Origin: Promethearchaeota archaeon Loki_b31
Lineage (GTDB): Archaea > Asgardarchaeota > Lokiarchaeia > Sigyniarchaeales > SOKP01
NCBI GenBank assembly: GCA_005222975.1
Contig: NJBI01000058.1
Coordinates: forward strand, 1 to 19,376
Length of the DNA: 19,376 bases
Direction of reading: 5' to 3'
In this document: positions 2,990 through 19,376 of the stretch, piece after piece
Layout of the letters: every line of letters begins with the position of its first letter
How positions within the stretch are numbered: position 1 is the first letter of the stretch
Program-made: the position numbers and the translations under genes
The notes under the pieces: generated by a model
What the model saw: the letters and a program-made list of their open reading frames with translations, nothing else
Told to the model about the DNA's origin: nothing
Database searches by the model: none

Positions 2990-4609
2990 CTAAAGTTCAA
3001 ATTCTTCTATAAGTTGTTTTTGAAGAGTTGGCCGATCTACTTTAGCAAGATGAGTAATTGGCAATTCTTTCTTAAAAACAACTTTTTTTGGCACTTTAAA
3101 GTTCGCTAATTCTTTTTTACATATTTCAATAATTTCACTTTCAACAACTTCTTGTCCGGATTCAGGAACCACTGCAACCCAAACTATTTCGTTATAAATT
3201 TTGTCAGGAATTCCCACTGCTGCAACCATAGCTACCTTTGGATGTTTTACTATTACATCTTCTACTTCTGAAGGAAGAACTGTATAACTGCCAACTCGAA
3301 TAATGAATTTTATCCTTCCTTTGATATAAATCCTACCATCTTCAGTAATATAACCTAAATCTCCAGATCTGCACCAACCATCCTCCGTAAAGGTCGTTTT
3401 ATTTTCCTCGGGCATCTCATAATAGCCAGGTATAGTTAAAGTTCCTTTAAATAACATTTCCCCAATTTCTCCAATAGGCACTTCGTTGTTATTCTCGTCC
3501 ACTATTTTCATTTCTTGGTCAGGTAAGAGCTTGCCAATATAACCTTTGGCTAATTCTTCTAAAGGATCCCCTATATCTGTAAAAGTAACCTCTGGACCTG
3601 ATTCGGTACTTCCATAAGCATTAAGAATATTGGGACAGATTTTATCTCGCATCCCAGTTAACAAGTCCATACTTACCTTTTCACCACTTATAATAGATAT
3701 TAATAGAGAAGATGTATTAAAATTATTTAAATCAGGTAAACTTAGCATTATTGCGTACATTGTAGGAACTCCTCCAATTAATTGAAGTTTAAACCTTTTA
3801 ATTGCCCTTAAAACTGCGTACGGATTCCATTGTTCTTGTAACACAATTTCGCAACCAGCCACTAAAACTGTTCCCATTATTTCAATTGACCCTCCAGCGT
3901 GACTTGGGGGAAAATTATTTAACATTTTAAACCTTGGTTTTTACCCTAAAGGTACTCCTTTTTCGTGAATATAAGTCGCTTCAAGGAAACTAGCATGGGC
4001 AATATTTTTATGCGTTAATAAGGCTGATTTTGGCACGCCTGTGGTACCCCCCGTAAATATAATTAAAGCACCGTCGTCTGGACTCAATTTAGAACGCGCC
4101 TTTTTTAACTCTTCGCTTAGTCCATAATCTTTTTCTAATAATTCTTCAAAGGGAGTGCCGAACTCGTCTTTCCCAATCATAAAATACTTTATATTAGGAT
4201 TAAAATTTGAACTAAGGTTCTTTATCAAATTTGCGATGTCGTAACCCCGTGCTTTTCCAATTAAGAATACAAGTTTAGGGTCAACATGAGGTATGAATCT
4301 CTGAAAATCAGCGGATCTGAAACGAACGTCCATAGGTACGCAAATGGCTCCGATTGAGTTAGCTGCTAAATATATAAGTGGATATTCCATAATCATTGGG
4401 ATAATAGTTATAATTGTATCGCCTTTTTTAACTCCCAAGCTAAGAAACACTTCCGCTAAATGATCGATAGCGTCAGCTAATTGCTGGGCGTTATATTTCT
4501 TCCATTTAAACTTGATAAAAGGGAACTCTGGATCTATGGAAGCCCAATGATGCACATATTGCCATAAATAATCTAATTTTGGGATTTTAAAAGTAATATA
4601 AATCACCAA
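2990..4609 (-). pseudogene. Long-chain acyl-CoA synthetase (AMP-forming, class I adenylate-forming enzyme) interrupted by one in-frame TAA at 3941-3943
   Basis: ORFs 3941..4609 and 2990..3925 share one frame and read ...KGVPLG*KPRFKMLNNFPPSH.... The N-half has the AMP-binding loop FTGGTTGVPK; the C-half has YGSTE, SGDLG, KGRIK and the terminal KVDR lysine. Joined length is about 540 codons, typical of the family. Could be a sequencing error rather than a real pseudogene. Confidence 0.8.
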
Positions 4610-12195: not shown

Positions 12196-13449
12196 TCATT
12201 CTTTCTTGTTATTATTGAAATACTCTGAACTAAGATTGGGAAATATCTTTTTTTTTCTTCCTTCGCTTTTGAAATGAACTAAATTAAGATCTATTAGCTT
12301 TTTAACGTGATATTGAATAGTTTTATGGTCAACCTTAAAGCGTTTTGTTATAATGCTATTCCATAGACCCGGTTCTTTTTCGATCAGTTGTAAGACTTCT
12401 AACGTTAATTTGCTCTTACTTAATTGAAGATCAAGGTTTGAAATGGGATTCTTCTGGTAATACGGAAAATACGCTATAAAATTCCCAATACGCTTTTTCC
12501 CAATAACCTTGTAGGTTTCTAATATATCGAGGTGCCACACGAGATTACCGGCAGCTATTTCGATTTTTCTTAATAGCTCGTTGAAATGAATACCAGGTTC
12601 ATTTAGAATTAAATCGATTATTTTATTCCTATTTTCGTTCTCTAATACGTCTATTAAGCTTAGCCGATGAGCGCCTTTCTCAATTGGAATCGTTCTAGTT
12701 TTTAAGTATTGGAAATAATCTTTTTTTGAAATTAAAATAACAAGCGATGCTATCCCAATAGCACCAACTATCAAAATAATTACCCAAATCCAATTATCAA
12801 AACCTTCAATAATCTCGAAAAAAGTAATGTAATATTCAGTGTCTGCTTGCAAGTTATTAAGAGACCCCTCTAAAAAATATTCAGAACTTGACTCATTATA
12901 TTGTTCAATTGTACTGATAACTTCCCACATTTCTTGCGAAGGCTCGTATAAAGCTAAAGAATAACTATTACTTGGATTAAAGCCGTATAGAGATCTTTTA
13001 AGACCTTTAATAGTCATACTTTCTATCGTTGTGTTAATATTTATTTGAAAGATGCAATCATATTTGTATTGAAATTGAGCATCTCCTTTTTTTGGTCCTT
13101 GAGGCGATCTAACCATCCCAAAATTTTGCATAGTTACTTTAGAGGTGATATTTAAGGAAATCGGATTAATATTATTAATAAGAAAGAGAATTTGACGATT
13201 TTCAATTTTATTTTCATATTGGATTTCTAAGTCAATAAAAGAATCTGTCGAGATTTCAAAAATTATATTGTTAGAAAAAATGTATTTCACAGATTCGTTT
13301 GGGTAGATTTGATCTTGAGTAGAAAAACCGGGTATACTTTCAGTTCTTTGAGATAAAACATTAGATATTAAGAAACTAAAATTAATAAAGATTAAAAGTA
13401 ATATAAGAACGCTGAAATTTGATTTGTTCCTTAATTTTAATTTAAACAT
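12196..13449 (-). CDS. Single-pass membrane-anchored transcription regulator: signal peptide, ectodomain, TM helix, two winged helix-turn-helix domains
   Basis: 417 aa. Basic then hydrophobic N-terminus; Asn/Ser-rich ectodomain with N-x-S/T sequons; TM at ~220-240 (WIWVIILIVGAIGIASLVILI); wHTH1 LENENRNKIIDLILNEPGIHFNELLR...LVWHLDILE; wHTH2 EPGLWNSIITKRFKVDHKTIQYHVKKL...EGRKK. Confidence 0.85.
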   Translation of the reverse strand: MFKLKLRNKSNFSVLILLLIFINFSFLISNVLSQRTESIPGFSTQDQIYPNESVKYIFSNNIIFEISTDSFIDLEIQYENKIENRQILFLINNINPISLNITSKVTMQNFGMVRSPQGPKKGDAQFQYKYDCIFQININTTIESMTIKGLKRSLYGFNPSNSYSLALYEPSQEMWEVISTIEQYNESSSEYFLEGSLNNLQADTEYYITFFEIIEGFDNWIWVIILIVGAIGIASLVILISKKDYFQYLKTRTIPIEKGAHRLSLIDVLENENRNKIIDLILNEPGIHFNELLRKIEIAAGNLVWHLDILETYKVIGKKRIGNFIAYFPYYQKNPISNLDLQLSKSKLTLEVLQLIEKEPGLWNSIITKRFKVDHKTIQYHVKKLIDLNLVHFKSEGRKKKIFPNLSSEYFNNNKKE

Positions 13450-13523
13450 TTAGATAATCCATTTTTTGATCGTTAGATTATTTTAATTATAAAATAAAAA
13501 AAAATATTGGTTTTTAGATATAA

Positions 13524-14234
13524 TTATTTTTTTGATGATTTTTTCTTTTTCACATAGATTACTGATCCGATAATTATTAAAGCAACAACGCCACCAATAC
13601 TCAATCCAATGATTAAAATTGTGTAGTCAGGTATAAGTATTGTCCATGTTGAAAAATGAGATACTTCAGCGGTTAGATAATCACCTTTTATGGTTGTTGG
13701 AACGCTAACCCATTCTTCCGTTGCTTCGTCGTAATAAGCCCATTGACCTATGCGATTTTCGTTAGTTACCCTTATACTTAATCTCGCTCGCGTGAAAGTA
13801 CCGTTGCATTCTAATTTAACTACAAATCCTTCTTGATATTGAACTCGATTGCGATTTCTAATTTGGTATGTATTGCCCTTTAATAAACCTAATTCTTTTT
13901 GTTCCTCCGTACAAGTCATACTCATTTGAAGATCGCCGCTACCTTCAATTTCAAGCGCAAAATCTTTAGCACCGATTTTTAAAGCTTCACAATCAAAGTC
14001 TACCTCTAAATTAACATTAGCGTTAAGTCTTAATTGAGTTCTATTTCTAAATCGAAACATGGTCATAGTGTTAGCTTGTATATGTGCGTGATATGTATCC
14101 GTATTAACTCCAATAGGATCATCATCTGGATCGCCAACGACTACGACATTGAAAGACGTAATCGTCGAAAATAGGATCATTAGAAAAATTGTACCTAAGA
14201 GAATTTTACTTAATTTTTTCATTTTTTTTATCAC
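13524..14234 (-). CDS. Secreted, C-terminally anchored surface protein with juxtamembrane HFS motif (candidate GAIN/ZU5-like autoproteolytic domain)
   Basis: 236 aa from GTG (alternative ATG at 14222). Signal peptide, beta-rich domain ending YYDEATEEWVSVPT...LTAEVSHFSTWTIL, TM ~206-228, then KKKKSSKK stop-transfer tail. ORF is solid; the function is inferred. Confidence 0.7.
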   Translation of the reverse strand: MIKKMKKLSKILLGTIFLMILFSTITSFNVVVVGDPDDDPIGVNTDTYHAHIQANTMTMFRFRNRTQLRLNANVNLEVDFDCEALKIGAKDFALEIEGSGDLQMSMTCTEEQKELGLLKGNTYQIRNRNRVQYQEGFVVKLECNGTFTRARLSIRVTNENRIGQWAYYDEATEEWVSVPTTIKGDYLTAEVSHFSTWTILIPDYTILIIGLSIGGVVALIIIGSVIYVKKKKSSKK

Positions 14235-14238
14235 TAAA

Positions 14239-14272
14239 TTGTTTTAATTAAAACAAAAAAAGGGCATATAAA
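14239..14272 (-). promoter_or_regulatory. Candidate promoter: TATA box (TTTATATG, 14265-14272) and perfect 18-bp palindrome TTGTTTTAATTAAAACAA (14239-14256)
   Basis: TATA-like element about 30 nt upstream of the GTG at 14234. The palindrome lies between TATA and start. The region is very AT-rich, so chance occurrence is possible. Confidence 0.5.
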
Positions 14273-14662
14273 AAGGATTGAGGAATAAAATTACCCGATT
14301 GAAAAGGATAATAAGTACTTTTAATCTGAAAGCAAATTTTAAAGTTTAAGTATAGTTTCAATTACTAGGATTATCCCTTAATTTATTTTTAATACTATAA
14401 AATTTTTTAAATCAATTTGCGGAAAGATTTCTAAAATTTTTTGTTTATCTTTTTAATTTTGTTTAAACATATTATCAGATGCAGTATTAAAGTCTCAAAA
14501 AATGAAGCTTCTTAATCCTTAAGTTTTAATATTATCGTTTTGAAAATATTATTATATATAAAATATTTTAAATAATATTAAAAAGAAATTCAGATTAAAT
14601 TTATTTTAACTAAATTAATATGAATTTTTTTAGATTATAATTTTAGAAATGGAGAAAAGCTT

Positions 14663-16918
14663 ATGAGCTTAAAAGAATTTACGAAGGAAATTTTCACGAG
14701 ATATGGTTTCTCTGAAGACCAAATTAATGTATATATTGTTTATCTTAGAGTCCCAAGAGCAACTTCGTCGGAAGTTTATTTGACTTTAACGGAAAAACAC
14801 CCTGAATTGACGTATGAAAGCGTTATTGAGATTACTAATTGGTTGGTTGAAAAAGGTTTTCTCAAAAAAGTAACTGGAATTGTTGACAGGTTTATTCCAT
14901 TAGAACCATACTTTGAATTATACATCGGAGAGTCTAAGATGTTTAGGGACGAAATTGCTAAAATAAAAGACTCAATTTTAGCGGATCAATCAGATCGATT
15001 TGAAAGATTGCAAGCTATCCAAGATAAAAGCATTAATGAAGTAGTAACTGCTGTTGACGACCAAATAAAAGCTTTTTTTGAAGATTCAGACACTAAGAAC
15101 AACAATAAAAGAGACCGAATTAACAGTTCAAGAAACCGGTTTACGGATACATCTAAAACTTTGGAAGAAAATCTTCATTCTATTATGGGTACACTAAATT
15201 CAGATATCAAAAATATCTCAGATACTAGAGTAAGAGAAAACGAATCTACGGTAAATAAAACAAAGGATAGCTTAACAGGATTAATTTCAGAGTTATTATC
15301 TGATTTTTCAAAAAGAGTAGAAGATTTAGAAAGAGAACTCAAAAGGGATTTAGATGATCACGTAGATCGCCATAAAACTATCGCAAACGATCTTAAACCT
15401 AGAATGGAACAAATTCTTGAAAAATATTTGGAAAGAATGGACAAGATAGTCGTAGACCTTAAAGGAAGGATTTCAAATCTATTAAAAGAACACTTAAACC
15501 ACCTTAAGAACGCCACCGATACCCTTCAAACTAATTTAAAGGCAACAGTCGACGAAAGACATAGGACTTTAACTGACCAAACCAATGAATTTAAAAGTAT
15601 GACGTTAACATTAATTGATAATCTTTTAGAACACGCTAATAGGTTTACAGATTTTTCGGCTGAAATGTCTAAAAAGGGATTTTTTTGGATGGGTAAAAAG
15701 AAAAAGTACAAAGCAAGACATGAAACTACGATTCAAAGCATTCTCAAATATACTGAACCTATGAAAGACGATTTTACAAACACAAGTGAGACATATATAA
15801 AAGATACACGAAGTACTTCGGACAACTTGAAAACTGACATCACAGATATTATCACTCTAGAAAACGATAATGTCGTTAGCGAAACCAACGATTTAGATCA
15901 CAAAGCACAAGAGACCATAAATGTACAATTAGAAACGCTTGCGAGTGATATGTCGGGAGAGATCGATTCAACTTTACAAAGTGGCGTAAAAGATTGCTCC
16001 GATACCACCGTTAAGCTTAAAGATTCGTTAGAGGACTCGCTTAAAACTCACCATAGACAATACGACGAAGCAATTAATAGACATAAAGACGAATCATTAA
16101 GGCACTATACTACATATGACACCGATATTAAAAGAATTAAAGAGGATTGGATTAGAGACCTTGATGATAAATTCACTGGCGGAAAAAGGGACAGTTCTGA
16201 AAAAATTACCGCTGAAATTAACTTGTGGGGCGACGAATCAGCAGACTTAGATAGAAACTTAAGTGAAATGCTTATTGATCATAAGTCTAAATACGAAGAA
16301 AATGCGAAAACTTTACAAAATAGTTTATCGAATACTACTCGAGACACAACACAAAACATTAAAGATGCGATCGCCGATTTCACGCTCCAATTTATGAACT
16401 CCATCGACGACGCCACAGAGTTAGCCGAAAAGAACGAAGGGAAGCTTAGTGATATACACAACACTTCAAGTTCAATTCCAGAAATAATGGACATTACGAC
16501 GTGGCAGATTGTAGGACGAGAAGCTCTGGTTGCAGCTATGAAGGATGCTATTTATAGGGTAAAATCTTCAATTATTATCGTAATGCCCTATGTGCTTCCA
16601 GAAATTTTACAAGTTATAAGTGAATACGCTTATCAGAAAAAGGCGGTAAGATTCATGCTAACCTCGAGATTTGATATGGCAACCTACGGCGATATCATAA
16701 AGAAGATGATTGCGCTGGGCAATATCCAATTCCGACAATTAAGTGGAGCTGGCGAATTCTTTGCGCTAACCAGAGACGCTGAAGAAGTCATCATTGGTCC
16801 TGCATCGGAAAAAGAAGGAGAAATGATAAGCGTGGTTTCCAATCAAACAGCCTATAGTATACTCTACTCCCAATTTATTGGTCCAATTTTTCAAGCGAAT
16901 TCCCGCCCGATAAAATAA
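14663..16918 (+). CDS. TrmB-like regulator with very long central helical/coiled-coil insertion
   Basis: 751 aa. N-terminal TrmB-type wHTH (YGFSEDQINVYIVYL...ATSSEV...LVEKGFL...RFIPLEP); ~85-610 charged helical rod; C-terminal TrmB effector/PLD-like domain (WQIVGREAL...KSSIIIVMP...RDAEEVIIGP). GGAG RBS. Confidence 0.7.
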   Translation: MSLKEFTKEIFTRYGFSEDQINVYIVYLRVPRATSSEVYLTLTEKHPELTYESVIEITNWLVEKGFLKKVTGIVDRFIPLEPYFELYIGESKMFRDEIAKIKDSILADQSDRFERLQAIQDKSINEVVTAVDDQIKAFFEDSDTKNNNKRDRINSSRNRFTDTSKTLEENLHSIMGTLNSDIKNISDTRVRENESTVNKTKDSLTGLISELLSDFSKRVEDLERELKRDLDDHVDRHKTIANDLKPRMEQILEKYLERMDKIVVDLKGRISNLLKEHLNHLKNATDTLQTNLKATVDERHRTLTDQTNEFKSMTLTLIDNLLEHANRFTDFSAEMSKKGFFWMGKKKKYKARHETTIQSILKYTEPMKDDFTNTSETYIKDTRSTSDNLKTDITDIITLENDNVVSETNDLDHKAQETINVQLETLASDMSGEIDSTLQSGVKDCSDTTVKLKDSLEDSLKTHHRQYDEAINRHKDESLRHYTTYDTDIKRIKEDWIRDLDDKFTGGKRDSSEKITAEINLWGDESADLDRNLSEMLIDHKSKYEENAKTLQNSLSNTTRDTTQNIKDAIADFTLQFMNSIDDATELAEKNEGKLSDIHNTSSSIPEIMDITTWQIVGREALVAAMKDAIYRVKSSIIIVMPYVLPEILQVISEYAYQKKAVRFMLTSRFDMATYGDIIKKMIALGNIQFRQLSGAGEFFALTRDAEEVIIGPASEKEGEMISVVSNQTAYSILYSQFIGPIFQANSRPIK

Positions 16919-17515: not shown

Positions 17516-19376
17516 TTATTTGGTACCAAGATATTTGCTTAAACTACTTAGTTTATTCTGAGGAATCTCGACCCCTGTCAGCTTTTTAAACTGTTTAAGA
17601 GCCTCAACTCCCCATCTGGAAGCATCCCAACTTTCTTTAATCTCTAATAAAATGATATTCTTCTCTCTACTAATTAGCCGTTTCTTTCTATCAGCCTCTA
17701 TTTGTCTGGGAAGTTTATGCCAATACGTACCCATTGCTTCAAAGGCTATGCCCATCCATTTATCGCCAAGACCTAAATAATCCTTCAAAGTCCTACTAAG
17801 GTCGAGATATCCATCAAATGCAAAAGCGTGGTGTACAAGAATATTTTCTTTAACACCGTCATCATTTATCGTAGAAACATATTTTTCTTTTACCACGGCT
17901 CTAACCTGCACCTCTGAAGCAAATTTTAGACCTAAAAAGTCCTCTATTTCTTTGTGAACTCTTCCCTGAAACTTAGTTGCGTGTTCCCTCGTCTTTTGAA
18001 ACTCTCTATATTTTGCCCTATAAGCATCGCGATATCGATCCAATACTTCCTTAGCATCTCGAAAGATTAGAGAACTCGAATCAGAAGGACTGTTCTTAAA
18101 GAGCCTATTAAAATAGTCGAGGAGTCTATTGAAATCATCCCCAAAGCCATATCCTTCAAAAAGATGATGCTTTAAGTCAGATACGCCAGCATCACTACTA
18201 AGAGTTTCGATATTCACAGACTCGCCGCTATTTGCCTCTGCGGCCGCAAAAAAGATAGCTCTAATGATTTCGTATTCAATAGTAAAAAAGTTTTTACCAA
18301 CTTCTAATTCTTTAGTTGTAGTTTTTGATACATATGTTGATTCATGATACCCGCCAAAAATATAGTAGTAAACGAGGTAAGACACGCTCTTCTTAAGAGT
18401 TTCTAAATTTTCACCCGTTATTTCTATACCCTTATCGCTAAACGCTTCTACTGTCAATTTATTAACTCTATAATCTATGGCTAAAAGTTCAGAAAGATCC
18501 ATACGCTTGAATATCTCCCGATTCTCAGTTGTCCATTTAAGCTTAGATACCCTTCCATATGTTGGAGTATCGCCAAATATAAACCACGACAGAAGATTGT
18601 CTGAAATTGGTAAACCAAACCTTTTTGGAAACATATAACGCAGATTTTCGATTAACCACGATTTAGGTGCCAATTCCTCAGAATCTTGTTGATACTTTAT
18701 ATGCGATATCGAAAACATACCTTGACCTGACTTACCTGAGACATGAAGCGAAAATTCTTTGTATTCCTTGATAAAATCTACTACTTTTCTGAAACTCGTT
18801 TCTTTCGCAGCGTCTTTTGTGATTGTACTATATTTTTGCACAATATGCAACCTCACTCGCTCCAGAATACCAACGCCAATGGCTCTATCTCTCTTAAGGT
18901 GACTGACCTTTCTAATATACTTATCTAACCGAAAATCAAAATGAGAAGAAAGTGGAATGCCAATGTCTAATATTTTATAACCGTATTCTTCTACTATAAT
19001 GTTTTTAAAATCTAACGCATATTTCACGCATAATGCTTCTAACTTTCTGTGATAGGATTGTTCATATTTTTTTATTTGTTTACTAGTCAATGGATTTAAA
19101 GAGTTCTCTGCTAAATTTCCTTGGTTTACACGACAATTATTTAAATATTTAATTTTCTCGTTTTTTTGTTCTTTCCTTAACTCTTTATATTTCTGCGAGA
19201 TGTGCTTAAAAAATTTGCTACGCACTCGATTAACAAAAAACCTGTTCAAAAGTTCCCACAAATGATTATAAAAATAATCTTTAAAAGCCCGAATATTTGC
19301 TAATAATTCTAATTGGATCGGACCTAAACCCTGTAGTCTTTCTGTTAAGGATTTTAATCTATTCTTTTCTATTTCA
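17516..19376 (-). CDS. Large protein (5'-truncated by window) with C-terminal Vsr/DUF559-like PD-(D/E)xK endonuclease domain
   Basis: The frame stays open upstream of the listed TTG (19261) to the window edge (EIEKNRLKSLTERLQGLGPIQLELLANIRAFKDYFYNHLWELL...). The C-terminus has FAFDGY...IAFEAMGTYWH...QIEADRKKRLISREKNIILLEI. Confidence 0.7.
   Translation of the reverse strand, partial: EIEKNRLKSLTERLQGLGPIQLELLANIRAFKDYFYNHLWELLNRFFVNRVRSKFFKHISQKYKELRKEQKNEKIKYLNNCRVNQGNLAENSLNPLTSKQIKKYEQSYHRKLEALCVKYALDFKNIIVEEYGYKILDIGIPLSSHFDFRLDKYIRKVSHLKRDRAIGVGILERVRLHIVQKYSTITKDAAKETSFRKVVDFIKEYKEFSLHVSGKSGQGMFSISHIKYQQDSEELAPKSWLIENLRYMFPKRFGLPISDNLLSWFIFGDTPTYGRVSKLKWTTENREIFKRMDLSELLAIDYRVNKLTVEAFSDKGIEITGENLETLKKSVSYLVYYYIFGGYHESTYVSKTTTKELEVGKNFFTIEYEIIRAIFFAAAEANSGESVNIETLSSDAGVSDLKHHLFEGYGFGDDFNRLLDYFNRLFKNSPSDSSSLIFRDAKEVLDRYRDAYRAKYREFQKTREHATKFQGRVHKEIEDFLGLKFASEVQVRAVVKEKYVSTINDDGVKENILVHHAFAFDGYLDLSRTLKDYLGLGDKWMGIAFEAMGTYWHKLPRQIEADRKKRLISREKNIILLEIKESWDASRWGVEALKQFKKLTGVEIPQNKLSSLSKYLGTK

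Follow-up and report, generated by a model that had tools for sequence, protein, structure and literature searches.

Two co-oriented membrane-protein genes on a Lokiarchaeial contig

We examined contig NJBI01000058.1 (assembly GCA_005222975.1) of Promethearchaeota archaeon Loki_b31, whose 19,376 nt are referred to here as the window, and focused on two adjacent genes, which we call A and B. Both lie on the minus strand, as do all window coordinates given below unless a plus sign is added. Gene A (13524–14222) is predicted to encode a 232-residue type I membrane protein consisting of a signal peptide, a stand-alone GAIN-B/ZU5-like domain of the MAIN (Microbial Autoproteolysis INducing) type, a transmembrane helix and a KKKKSSKK tail; gene B (12196–13449) would encode a membrane-tethered, transcription-factor-like protein of 417 residues. 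A first-pass annotation had described two neighbouring, co-oriented genes 74 nt apart (open reading frames 13524–14234 and 12196–13449), each with a signal peptide, an ectodomain and a single transmembrane segment, and hydropathy analysis agrees with this layout.

The open reading frame of gene A was listed with a GTG start at 14234 (13524–14234). The real start is more likely the ATG at 14222, since the GTG sits within a Shine-Dalgarno-like AGTGA/AGGTG stretch that is kept in relatives, and since the database copy of the protein has 232 residues. Hydropathy peaks at residues 16–34 and 208–226, and the transmembrane helix (13551–13625) is followed by the lysine tail. Protein A thus carries a signal-like segment as well as a surface anchor C-terminal to the MAIN-type domain. 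It lacks the large N-terminal adhesion or enzymatic passenger that is typical of the MAIN family, if not strictly defining for it, and only about 10 residues separate the signal peptide from the first strand. Searches of Pfam gave no family for gene A; matches to MunI, FixH and LPXTG were judged to be noise.

Protein B is built from an ectodomain (12802–13350, residues 34–216), a transmembrane helix placed by hydropathy (12727–12795, about residues 219–241), a highly conserved cytoplasmic juxtamembrane segment (SKKDY...KGAHRLS, 12664–12726) and two winged helix-turn-helix (wHTH) domains. The first of these (12463–12639) matches PF24266, HTH_HVO_0163_N, with a Pfam E of 4.9e-15, and the second (12277–12411) matches the MarR/ArsR-like PF13412, HTH_24, with E = 1.8e-8. 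With DNA-binding domains and a transmembrane segment in one protein, B belongs to the broad class of transmembrane transcription regulators. Its 96 cytoplasmic residues are nearly identical in relatives whose ectodomains share only 50–55% identity. Because A and B both have a signal-like N-terminus, one later transmembrane helix and then basic residues, each is predicted to be an N-out, C-in single-pass protein. Paralogues of the wHTH part of B within the same genome (two frames read, L003 and L004) carry no B-type ectodomain and were not taken as further copies of the module.

Fold, motif and descent of the two ectodomains

The ectodomain of A (13629–14117, about residues 40–202 in P0001 numbering, ~165 residues) was modelled by AlphaFold2 (AF2) as an almost all-beta structure, with a mean predicted local distance difference test (pLDDT) score of 92.7 for 171 residues. 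When this model was compared by VIA to 48,161 representative PDB chains, GAIN domains occupied ranks 1, 2, 3 and 5 (BAI3, Z = 7.3 over 123 residues at 3.8 Å; CELSR1, 6.6; CD97, 6.5 and 5.8), the FIIND of CARD8 rank 4 (6.0) and ankyrin ZU5 domains ranks 7 and 11 (5.6 and 5.4), with the NLRP1 FIIND and UNC5b at lower positions. Foldseek also places GAIN domains first for A (probability 0.95–0.96), and returned no PDB match with E below 1e-3 for the model of A or that of B; a PDB sequence search with the A profile gave no matches. The model is a beta-sandwich with GAIN-B/ZU5 topology, every Z value being below 8, in the range that VIA calls middling. The match list is dominated by self-cleaving beta-sandwich families, although the Z values are moderate.

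Residues His193-Phe194-Ser195 of A (13650–13658) are the predicted self-cleavage site, with the cut between F and S. In the AF2 model they correspond to residues 158–160 and fill the four-residue turn that joins the last two strands (151–156 and 161–167), the transmembrane helix beginning 8 residues later. The conserved H-x-S/T motif of A thus lies in the turn between the final two strands. In an alignment of 62 diverse A-type sequences with a mean identity of 32%, only five columns show a conservation of 90% or more, three of them being H, F and S; this argues for a catalytic rather than a structural constraint. The first-pass annotation had noted that A keeps HFS and has a tail of lysines only; the motif is indeed found at residues 193–195, and KKKKSSKK forms the C-terminus.

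GAIN domains (adhesion G-protein-coupled receptors (GPCRs), polycystin-1) and ZU5/FIIND domains (PIDD, NLRP1, CARD8) provide the best structural matches to A (Z = 5.6–7.3). They are cut at H-x-S/T (GAIN) or HFS/SFS (ZU5/FIIND) in the turn that precedes the final strand, which is where the motif of A is located. After the cut, the pieces of these domains do not separate, and the stub strand is placed beside the membrane like the tethered agonist of adhesion GPCRs; the same layout is predicted for A. Protein A differs from the GAIN proteins of adhesion GPCRs in that it has no helical GAIN-A part, no Pfam GPS match and no seven-helix domain, but a single transmembrane helix. No member of the diverse A set matched Pfam ZU5 or GPS. 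One weak Pfam match, in alignment A3, was spurious, one row having contained a methyltransferase.

A link to MAIN domains comes from the weaker matches of the A profile. These are bacterial proteins that combine adhesin repeats with SLH anchors, and their domains terminate in YYDE...W...HF[ST]xF/YAV. These bacterial HF[ST] domains adjoining SLH repeats served as a surrogate for the MAIN reference member YfkN, and their profile matched that of A in hhalign with a probability of 97.8% (E = 8e-13), the motifs being in register. MAIN domains have been described as having a GAIN-B-like fold and a conserved HFS (Brogan & Rudner, bioRxiv 10.64898/2026.05.12.724683). In Bacillus subtilis YfkN, cleavage between F and S was established by Edman degradation, S-to-A mutants were uncut and the fragments stayed associated; nearly all bacterial MAIN domains tested in that work self-cleave. 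The proteins described there are release devices, and the preprint ties no signalling to MAIN domains. In that work, structure-based annotation labels the domain ZU5 and includes members from Bathyarchaeota; the text, and the portions of the supplementary tables consulted, name no Asgard lineage, and matches of the string 'HTH' in the supplement were not HTH domains.

A shares with YfkN and the IgA-Fc receptor of S. agalactiae a signal peptide, a beta-sandwich that is GAIN-B/ZU5-like, a YYDE...W...HFS signature whose HFS occupies the last beta-turn, and an anchor to the cell surface that follows the domain directly. It differs from them in having 232 residues and no adhesion, enzyme or toxin passenger, whereas described MAIN proteins average 158 kDa; in being anchored by a transmembrane helix rather than through sortase or SLH; in being paired with a regulator whose own copy of the domain is dead; and in that its cleavage is predicted only. 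Since the fold, the position of HFS and the register of the motif with the bacterial HF[ST] domains fit the MAIN family, A is best read, from sequence and model, as a minimal, passenger-less, transmembrane-anchored MAIN protein that is predicted to cleave itself.

Other arrangements of the domain were also encountered. Four archaeal or uncharacterised proteins (P0243, P0308, P0311 and P0321) have MAIN-like domains in tandem, two or three per protein, with HFS(T/I)WT at the end of each; if all sites were cut, strand exchange alone would hold such a chain together. Additional A-type genes occur in other genomes (L021 2899–3783, L022 2889–3818, L020 81–1055 and L012 1343–3063), and the additional forms include proteins of 294–309 residues with an insert between the domain halves and one of 324 residues with a full domain and a second, partial copy.

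The ectodomain of B was modelled with a pLDDT of 88.6 and has the same structural neighbours as that of A, with lower scores (Z about 5.3). At the position of the motif, where A has H-F-S-T, it carries Y-[YF]-[IVLF] followed by a conserved T. It therefore lacks the catalytic H-x-S/T of MAIN domains, and none of 121 relatives of B has HxS/T near the end of the ectodomain. The absence of HFS from B and the presence of two cytoplasmic winged helices had both been recorded in the first-pass annotation, and are borne out by these relatives and by the two Pfam matches.

The first-pass annotation had also aligned the two ectodomains by eye, read the collinear similarity as paralogy, and proposed profile and model comparisons of the pair. 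BLASTP recovered the same collinear alignment with 18% identity and E = 2, which is not significant alone. Using hhalign with a shallow set of A sequences, we obtained a probability of 83% (E = 8.5e-6) and a score of 40, against controls that scored 12.6 ± 2.1 for column shuffles, 15.1 ± 3.0 (maximum 24) for block shuffles and 14–18 for reversed profiles. Once distant A-type sequences had been gathered by exhaustive hidden Markov model (HMM) search, the alignment of 62 sequences gave 98.4% and E = 4.4e-15 over 140 columns; global mode gave 98.9% over 163 columns. The B profile matches A genes of other genomes with E values of 1e-8 to 1e-11, and the HMMs of A and B each find the other family in the fetched loci. 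The two AF2 models, both confident and sharing a common fold, have an identical order of strands, and the A model superimposes on an ESM-Atlas cluster of B-type proteins with a template-modelling score of 0.84 (166 residues, 2.5 Å). The ectodomains of A and B are true paralogues. Judging from the alignments and models, that of B is a dead copy of a MAIN domain, of common fold and ancestry. A complex prediction for the two ectodomains scored 0.00; it was run without controls and was not used as evidence either way.

In a tree of the ectodomains, all motif-less B-type domains are split from all those that bear HFS with a support of 99/98 and a long branch. Such a split would be expected if the motif had been lost once, with divergence afterwards, the order of events being left unproven by the midpoint root, the only one used. 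The long branch also bears on the idea that HFS is a structural relic, and that uncut A stabilises or shields B as an accessory subunit, in the manner of ToxS with ToxR or TcpH with TcpP. The fold match of A is only moderate, A and B are single-pass partners with adjacent genes, and some ZU5 and GAIN domains retain their fold without being cleaved, all of which would suit such a role. We nevertheless regard it as improbable: the near-invariance of HFS in the 62 sequences argues for a catalytic constraint, the domain that did lose the motif, that of B, diverged on a long branch, and nearly all of the bacterial MAIN domains tested cut themselves. We keep to the reading of A as a protein that would cleave itself.

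Conservation of the gene pair and of its promoter element

Gene content was surveyed in 301 sampled genomes of the phylum. Gene A is present in 60 of 68 genomes of the window's family and in all 7 of a sister family of the same Lokiarchaeial order, and gene B in 60 of 68 and 6 of 7, respectively; in sampled genomes beyond these two families, only short matches to the HFS strand were found. Where a genome has both genes, the two share strand and contig, with A upstream of B and a near-constant gap, in 60 of 61 cases in the window's family and in 6 of 6 in the sister family (66/67 combined); the sole exception, in the former, is probably due to a contig break. In the window's family the flanks are kept as well, namely a divergent gene for a 751-residue TrmB-like coiled-coil protein and a downstream nitroreductase gene. 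In a closed 4.36-Mb genome of the sister family, A followed by B is retained and the flanks are different. The same order is found on two GC-rich archaeal contigs (L024 and L025, with 61% and 67% GC). The adjacency that the first-pass annotation had proposed to survey is therefore conserved far beyond the flanking genes. We note that some genomes carry two A genes in tandem ahead of B.

Tandem paralogues often remain adjacent for some time, and the interaction of A with B is a prediction, so that the arrangement could in principle be a mere trace of tandem duplication, with unrelated present roles. We consider this very unlikely, given that order and orientation are kept in 66 of 67 genomes of two families while the flanks change, that GC-rich lineages show the same order, and that a promoter box and an oligo-T run described below are conserved too.

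The two parts are also found in one chain. In two representatives, P0296 and P0254, an HFS-bearing domain, a transmembrane helix, the juxtamembrane segment and the double wHTH are joined in a single polypeptide. P0296 (481 residues) is encoded on the 61%-GC contig, was seen in two samples and directly follows an A-type gene, P0289, which itself has HFS. A scan of species genomes gave no relatives of P0296 and a word-indexed protein search returned P0296 alone; the form thus looks rare among the sequences searched. P0254 comes from AT-rich DNA, its signal peptide cut by the contig end, and occupies the syntenic place of B before the nitroreductase gene. In the ectodomain tree it falls among the A-type sequences of the window's family, and its cytoplasmic part is B-type. 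With an A-type ectodomain at the place of B on one short contig, P0254 is either a natural A/B recombinant or an assembly chimera.

A second group of B paralogues, with a motif-less ectodomain and the same wHTH part, is seen in other genomes and is always preceded by a conserved protein of 180–196 residues (L014 4458–5033, L015 4272–4820, L016 3947–4525, L017 4189–4779). This partner has an N-terminal anchor, a beta-rich outer part and no sequence relation to A, and the arrangement looks like a sister module with a different partner.

Upstream of gene A, two elements stand out. The first is a TATA box, TTTTTATAT (14266–14274), about 48 nt before the ATG. The second, 2 nt further upstream, is an operator-like box, GGGTAATTTTATTCCTCAAT (14277–14296), which forms an imperfect dyad. 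The family consensus of the box, TGGGAA-N6-7-TTCCTCAAT, followed by (C/G)C-TTTTTATA, was found in 13 of 13 upstream regions across genera of the window's family, where the surrounding sequence is not conserved. The box is also present in more distant members of this family (L007 and L008), and degenerate forms occur in the sister family and on contig L024. A genome-wide search showed that the combination of box and TATA box is unique in its own genome; no second convincing site beside a TATA box and a gene was found, and hence no regulon in this genome. Archaeal activator sites typically lie just upstream of the transcription factor B recognition element (BRE) and TATA box, and B is the obvious candidate to bind this one.

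A further element lies in the 74-nt spacer between the two genes, where a T9 run (13496–13504) is a candidate archaeal terminator or attenuator. In each of the 8 lineages inspected, among them the GC-rich L024 and L025, the stop codon of A is followed by a run of T7 to T13. Oligo-T is an archaeal intrinsic termination signal, and its conservation after A makes it probable that the expression levels of the two genes differ. RNA libraries of two studies yielded assembled contigs of low depth that cover parts of both genes and break at the oligo-T spacer; we take them as at best a weak hint of expression.

These elements could be accommodated by a simpler scheme, in which B works alone as a one-component transmembrane regulator whose pseudo-MAIN ectodomain detects a ligand, and A is the main target gene of B, the shed outer piece of A being the output that, for example, remodels or releases something at the cell surface. 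Such a scheme would fit a conserved box that is unique in the genome and found only at the A promoter, directly upstream of its TATA box, an oligo-T run that permits separate expression of A and B, B paralogues that work with a different upstream gene, and the fact that described MAIN proteins release rather than signal. On the other hand, A has nothing to release other than the MAIN domain itself, the retention of paralogous ectodomains across deep lineages and the existence of HFS-regulator chains are better explained by shared sensing, and here, too, B is presupposed to be the binder of the box. We therefore see this scheme as possible and less probable than the sensor module proposed below.

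A proposed surface-to-DNA module

The reading that we favour, with a probability of about one half, is that A and B constitute a two-protein sensor module in which A cleaves itself and can be shed, and B, through its dead copy of the domain, reads A and feeds back on the A promoter. The pair would thus be a conserved two-gene connection from surface to DNA, derived from one duplicated GAIN-B/ZU5-like (MAIN) domain. Protein A would be exported, held in the membrane by one helix and most likely cut by itself between Phe194 and Ser195, with the beta-sheet keeping the two pieces joined, as it does in MAIN domains of bacteria and GAIN domains of animals. The outer piece of 160 residues could subsequently be shed in response to force or a ligand, which would leave the helix and an 8-residue stub, STWTILIP, in place. 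Protein B, with two cytoplasmic winged helices and an outer copy of the domain that cannot be cut, would act as the transmembrane transcription regulator, its ectodomain sensing whether A is intact or shed, either in a side-by-side heteromer or through the exposed stub of A. This would alter DNA binding by B at the membrane, or open B to intramembrane proteolysis, and an S2P-type intramembrane protease homologue is encoded in the genome. Regulation would run from A through B to the box beside the A TATA box, which would close a feedback loop, and the oligo-T run that follows A would hold B at a lower level than A.

Several points weigh against this proposal. The structural Z values of A reach at most 7.3, below the level at which the notes of the tool permit a firm fold call. 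Nearly all MAIN proteins described so far have a passenger domain that can be pulled on or released, which A lacks, and self-cleavage is known experimentally for bacterial members of the family only, not for any archaeal one. The box is found at the A promoter only, which would fit equally well if A were a mere target gene of B, and B is a candidate for the protein that binds it. P0254 comes from a single 2.5-kb metagenome contig that could be a chimeric assembly. Finally, since the second group of B paralogues pairs with an unrelated ectoprotein, a MAIN-paralogue partner is not obligatory for B-type regulators.

The first-pass annotation had proposed a signalling pair in which cleavage or shedding of one subunit controls the other. 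Its foundations hold, in that the ectodomains are paralogous, the adjacency is conserved, HFS sits at the cut position of GAIN, ZU5 and MAIN domains, and B is a tethered protein with two wHTH domains; cleavage, contact between A and B, and control by shedding are still predictions. The annotation had further compared the pair to ToxR/ToxS. Here the likeness is loose: ToxR/ToxS, TcpP/TcpH and CadC, as well as Sulfolobus ArnR/ArnR1 (PMC10269533; PMC13286277), feature a single-pass membrane DNA-binding protein with a small single-pass partner encoded next door. Compared with the ToxR/CadC family, however, the topology of B is reversed, its sensor being N-terminal and outside and its DNA-binding part C-terminal, and its tandem wHTH domains are of the MarR/ArsR/HVO_0163 type and not of the OmpR type. 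In addition, the partner in the present case is a paralogue of the sensor domain.

Parallels may also be drawn to systems in which a cut ectodomain could license proteolysis. GAIN, ZU5 and SEA-type self-cleaving domains gate animal signalling in adhesion GPCRs, Notch-like receptors and inflammasomes; in the A–B pair the output would be delivered by a separate, single-pass DNA-binding protein. In RsgI/SigI, which uses autoproteolysis of a SEAL domain (PMC10328401), and in Notch, a juxtamembrane ectodomain is self-cut or pre-cut, and its dissociation could license intramembrane cleavage and free the regulator. P0296-type chains fit this logic within one polypeptide, an S2P homologue being present. 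The differences are that RsgI and Notch have a SEA-like fold and deliver an anti-sigma factor or the Notch intracellular domain, whereas the window encodes the cuttable domain in one protein and the regulator in another, and proteolytic release is only proposed. A more specific version of our proposal, that Asgard archaea possess kinase-free mechano- or ligand-sensing of the Notch/adhesion-GPCR type, in which shedding of A is read by B and triggers its activation or intramembrane release, and for which P0296-type chains are ancestral, is one that we put forward tentatively, as less likely than not.

MAIN domains and transmembrane transcription regulators are known already, and the statement of the first-pass annotation that no description of the pair was known has to be narrowed accordingly: the self-cleaving domain is now described as MAIN, and the pair itself appears undescribed. 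What appears to be new, and is not described in the MAIN preprint, is the combination of a stand-alone MAIN protein with a dead-MAIN regulator, together with the single chains that join MAIN, transmembrane helix and wHTH. A minimal MAIN domain beside a membrane-tethered transcription factor, or on it in rare relatives, accompanied by a conserved promoter element in Asgard archaea, is a concrete candidate for the coupling of juxtamembrane autoproteolysis to gene regulation without kinases or G proteins, and bears on the age of such coupling. If the more specific version of the proposal is true, it would be the first case of signalling by GAIN-like domains of prokaryotes, found in the prokaryotes most closely related to eukaryotes. 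Since a closed genome of the sister family carries the pair, work in cultured Asgard strains may be feasible.

The pair is surrounded by genes of ordinary metabolism (M24 peptidase, nitroreductase, HpaB, enoyl-CoA hydratase and others). The 751-residue protein encoded divergently from A (14663–16918, +) shows a weak match to a TrmB-type N-terminal wHTH and a long helical middle with an apolipoprotein-like match; its place is kept in the distant family members L007 and L008, and not in the sister family. A 581-residue open reading frame (17516–19261) gave no Pfam match. An AMP-binding, acyl-CoA synthetase-like enzyme appears to be split over two open reading frames, 2990–3925 and 3941–4609, which cover profile positions 3–190, and 212–384 plus the C-terminal domain, respectively; a frameshift or a sequencing error may account for this, or the gene may be truly split.

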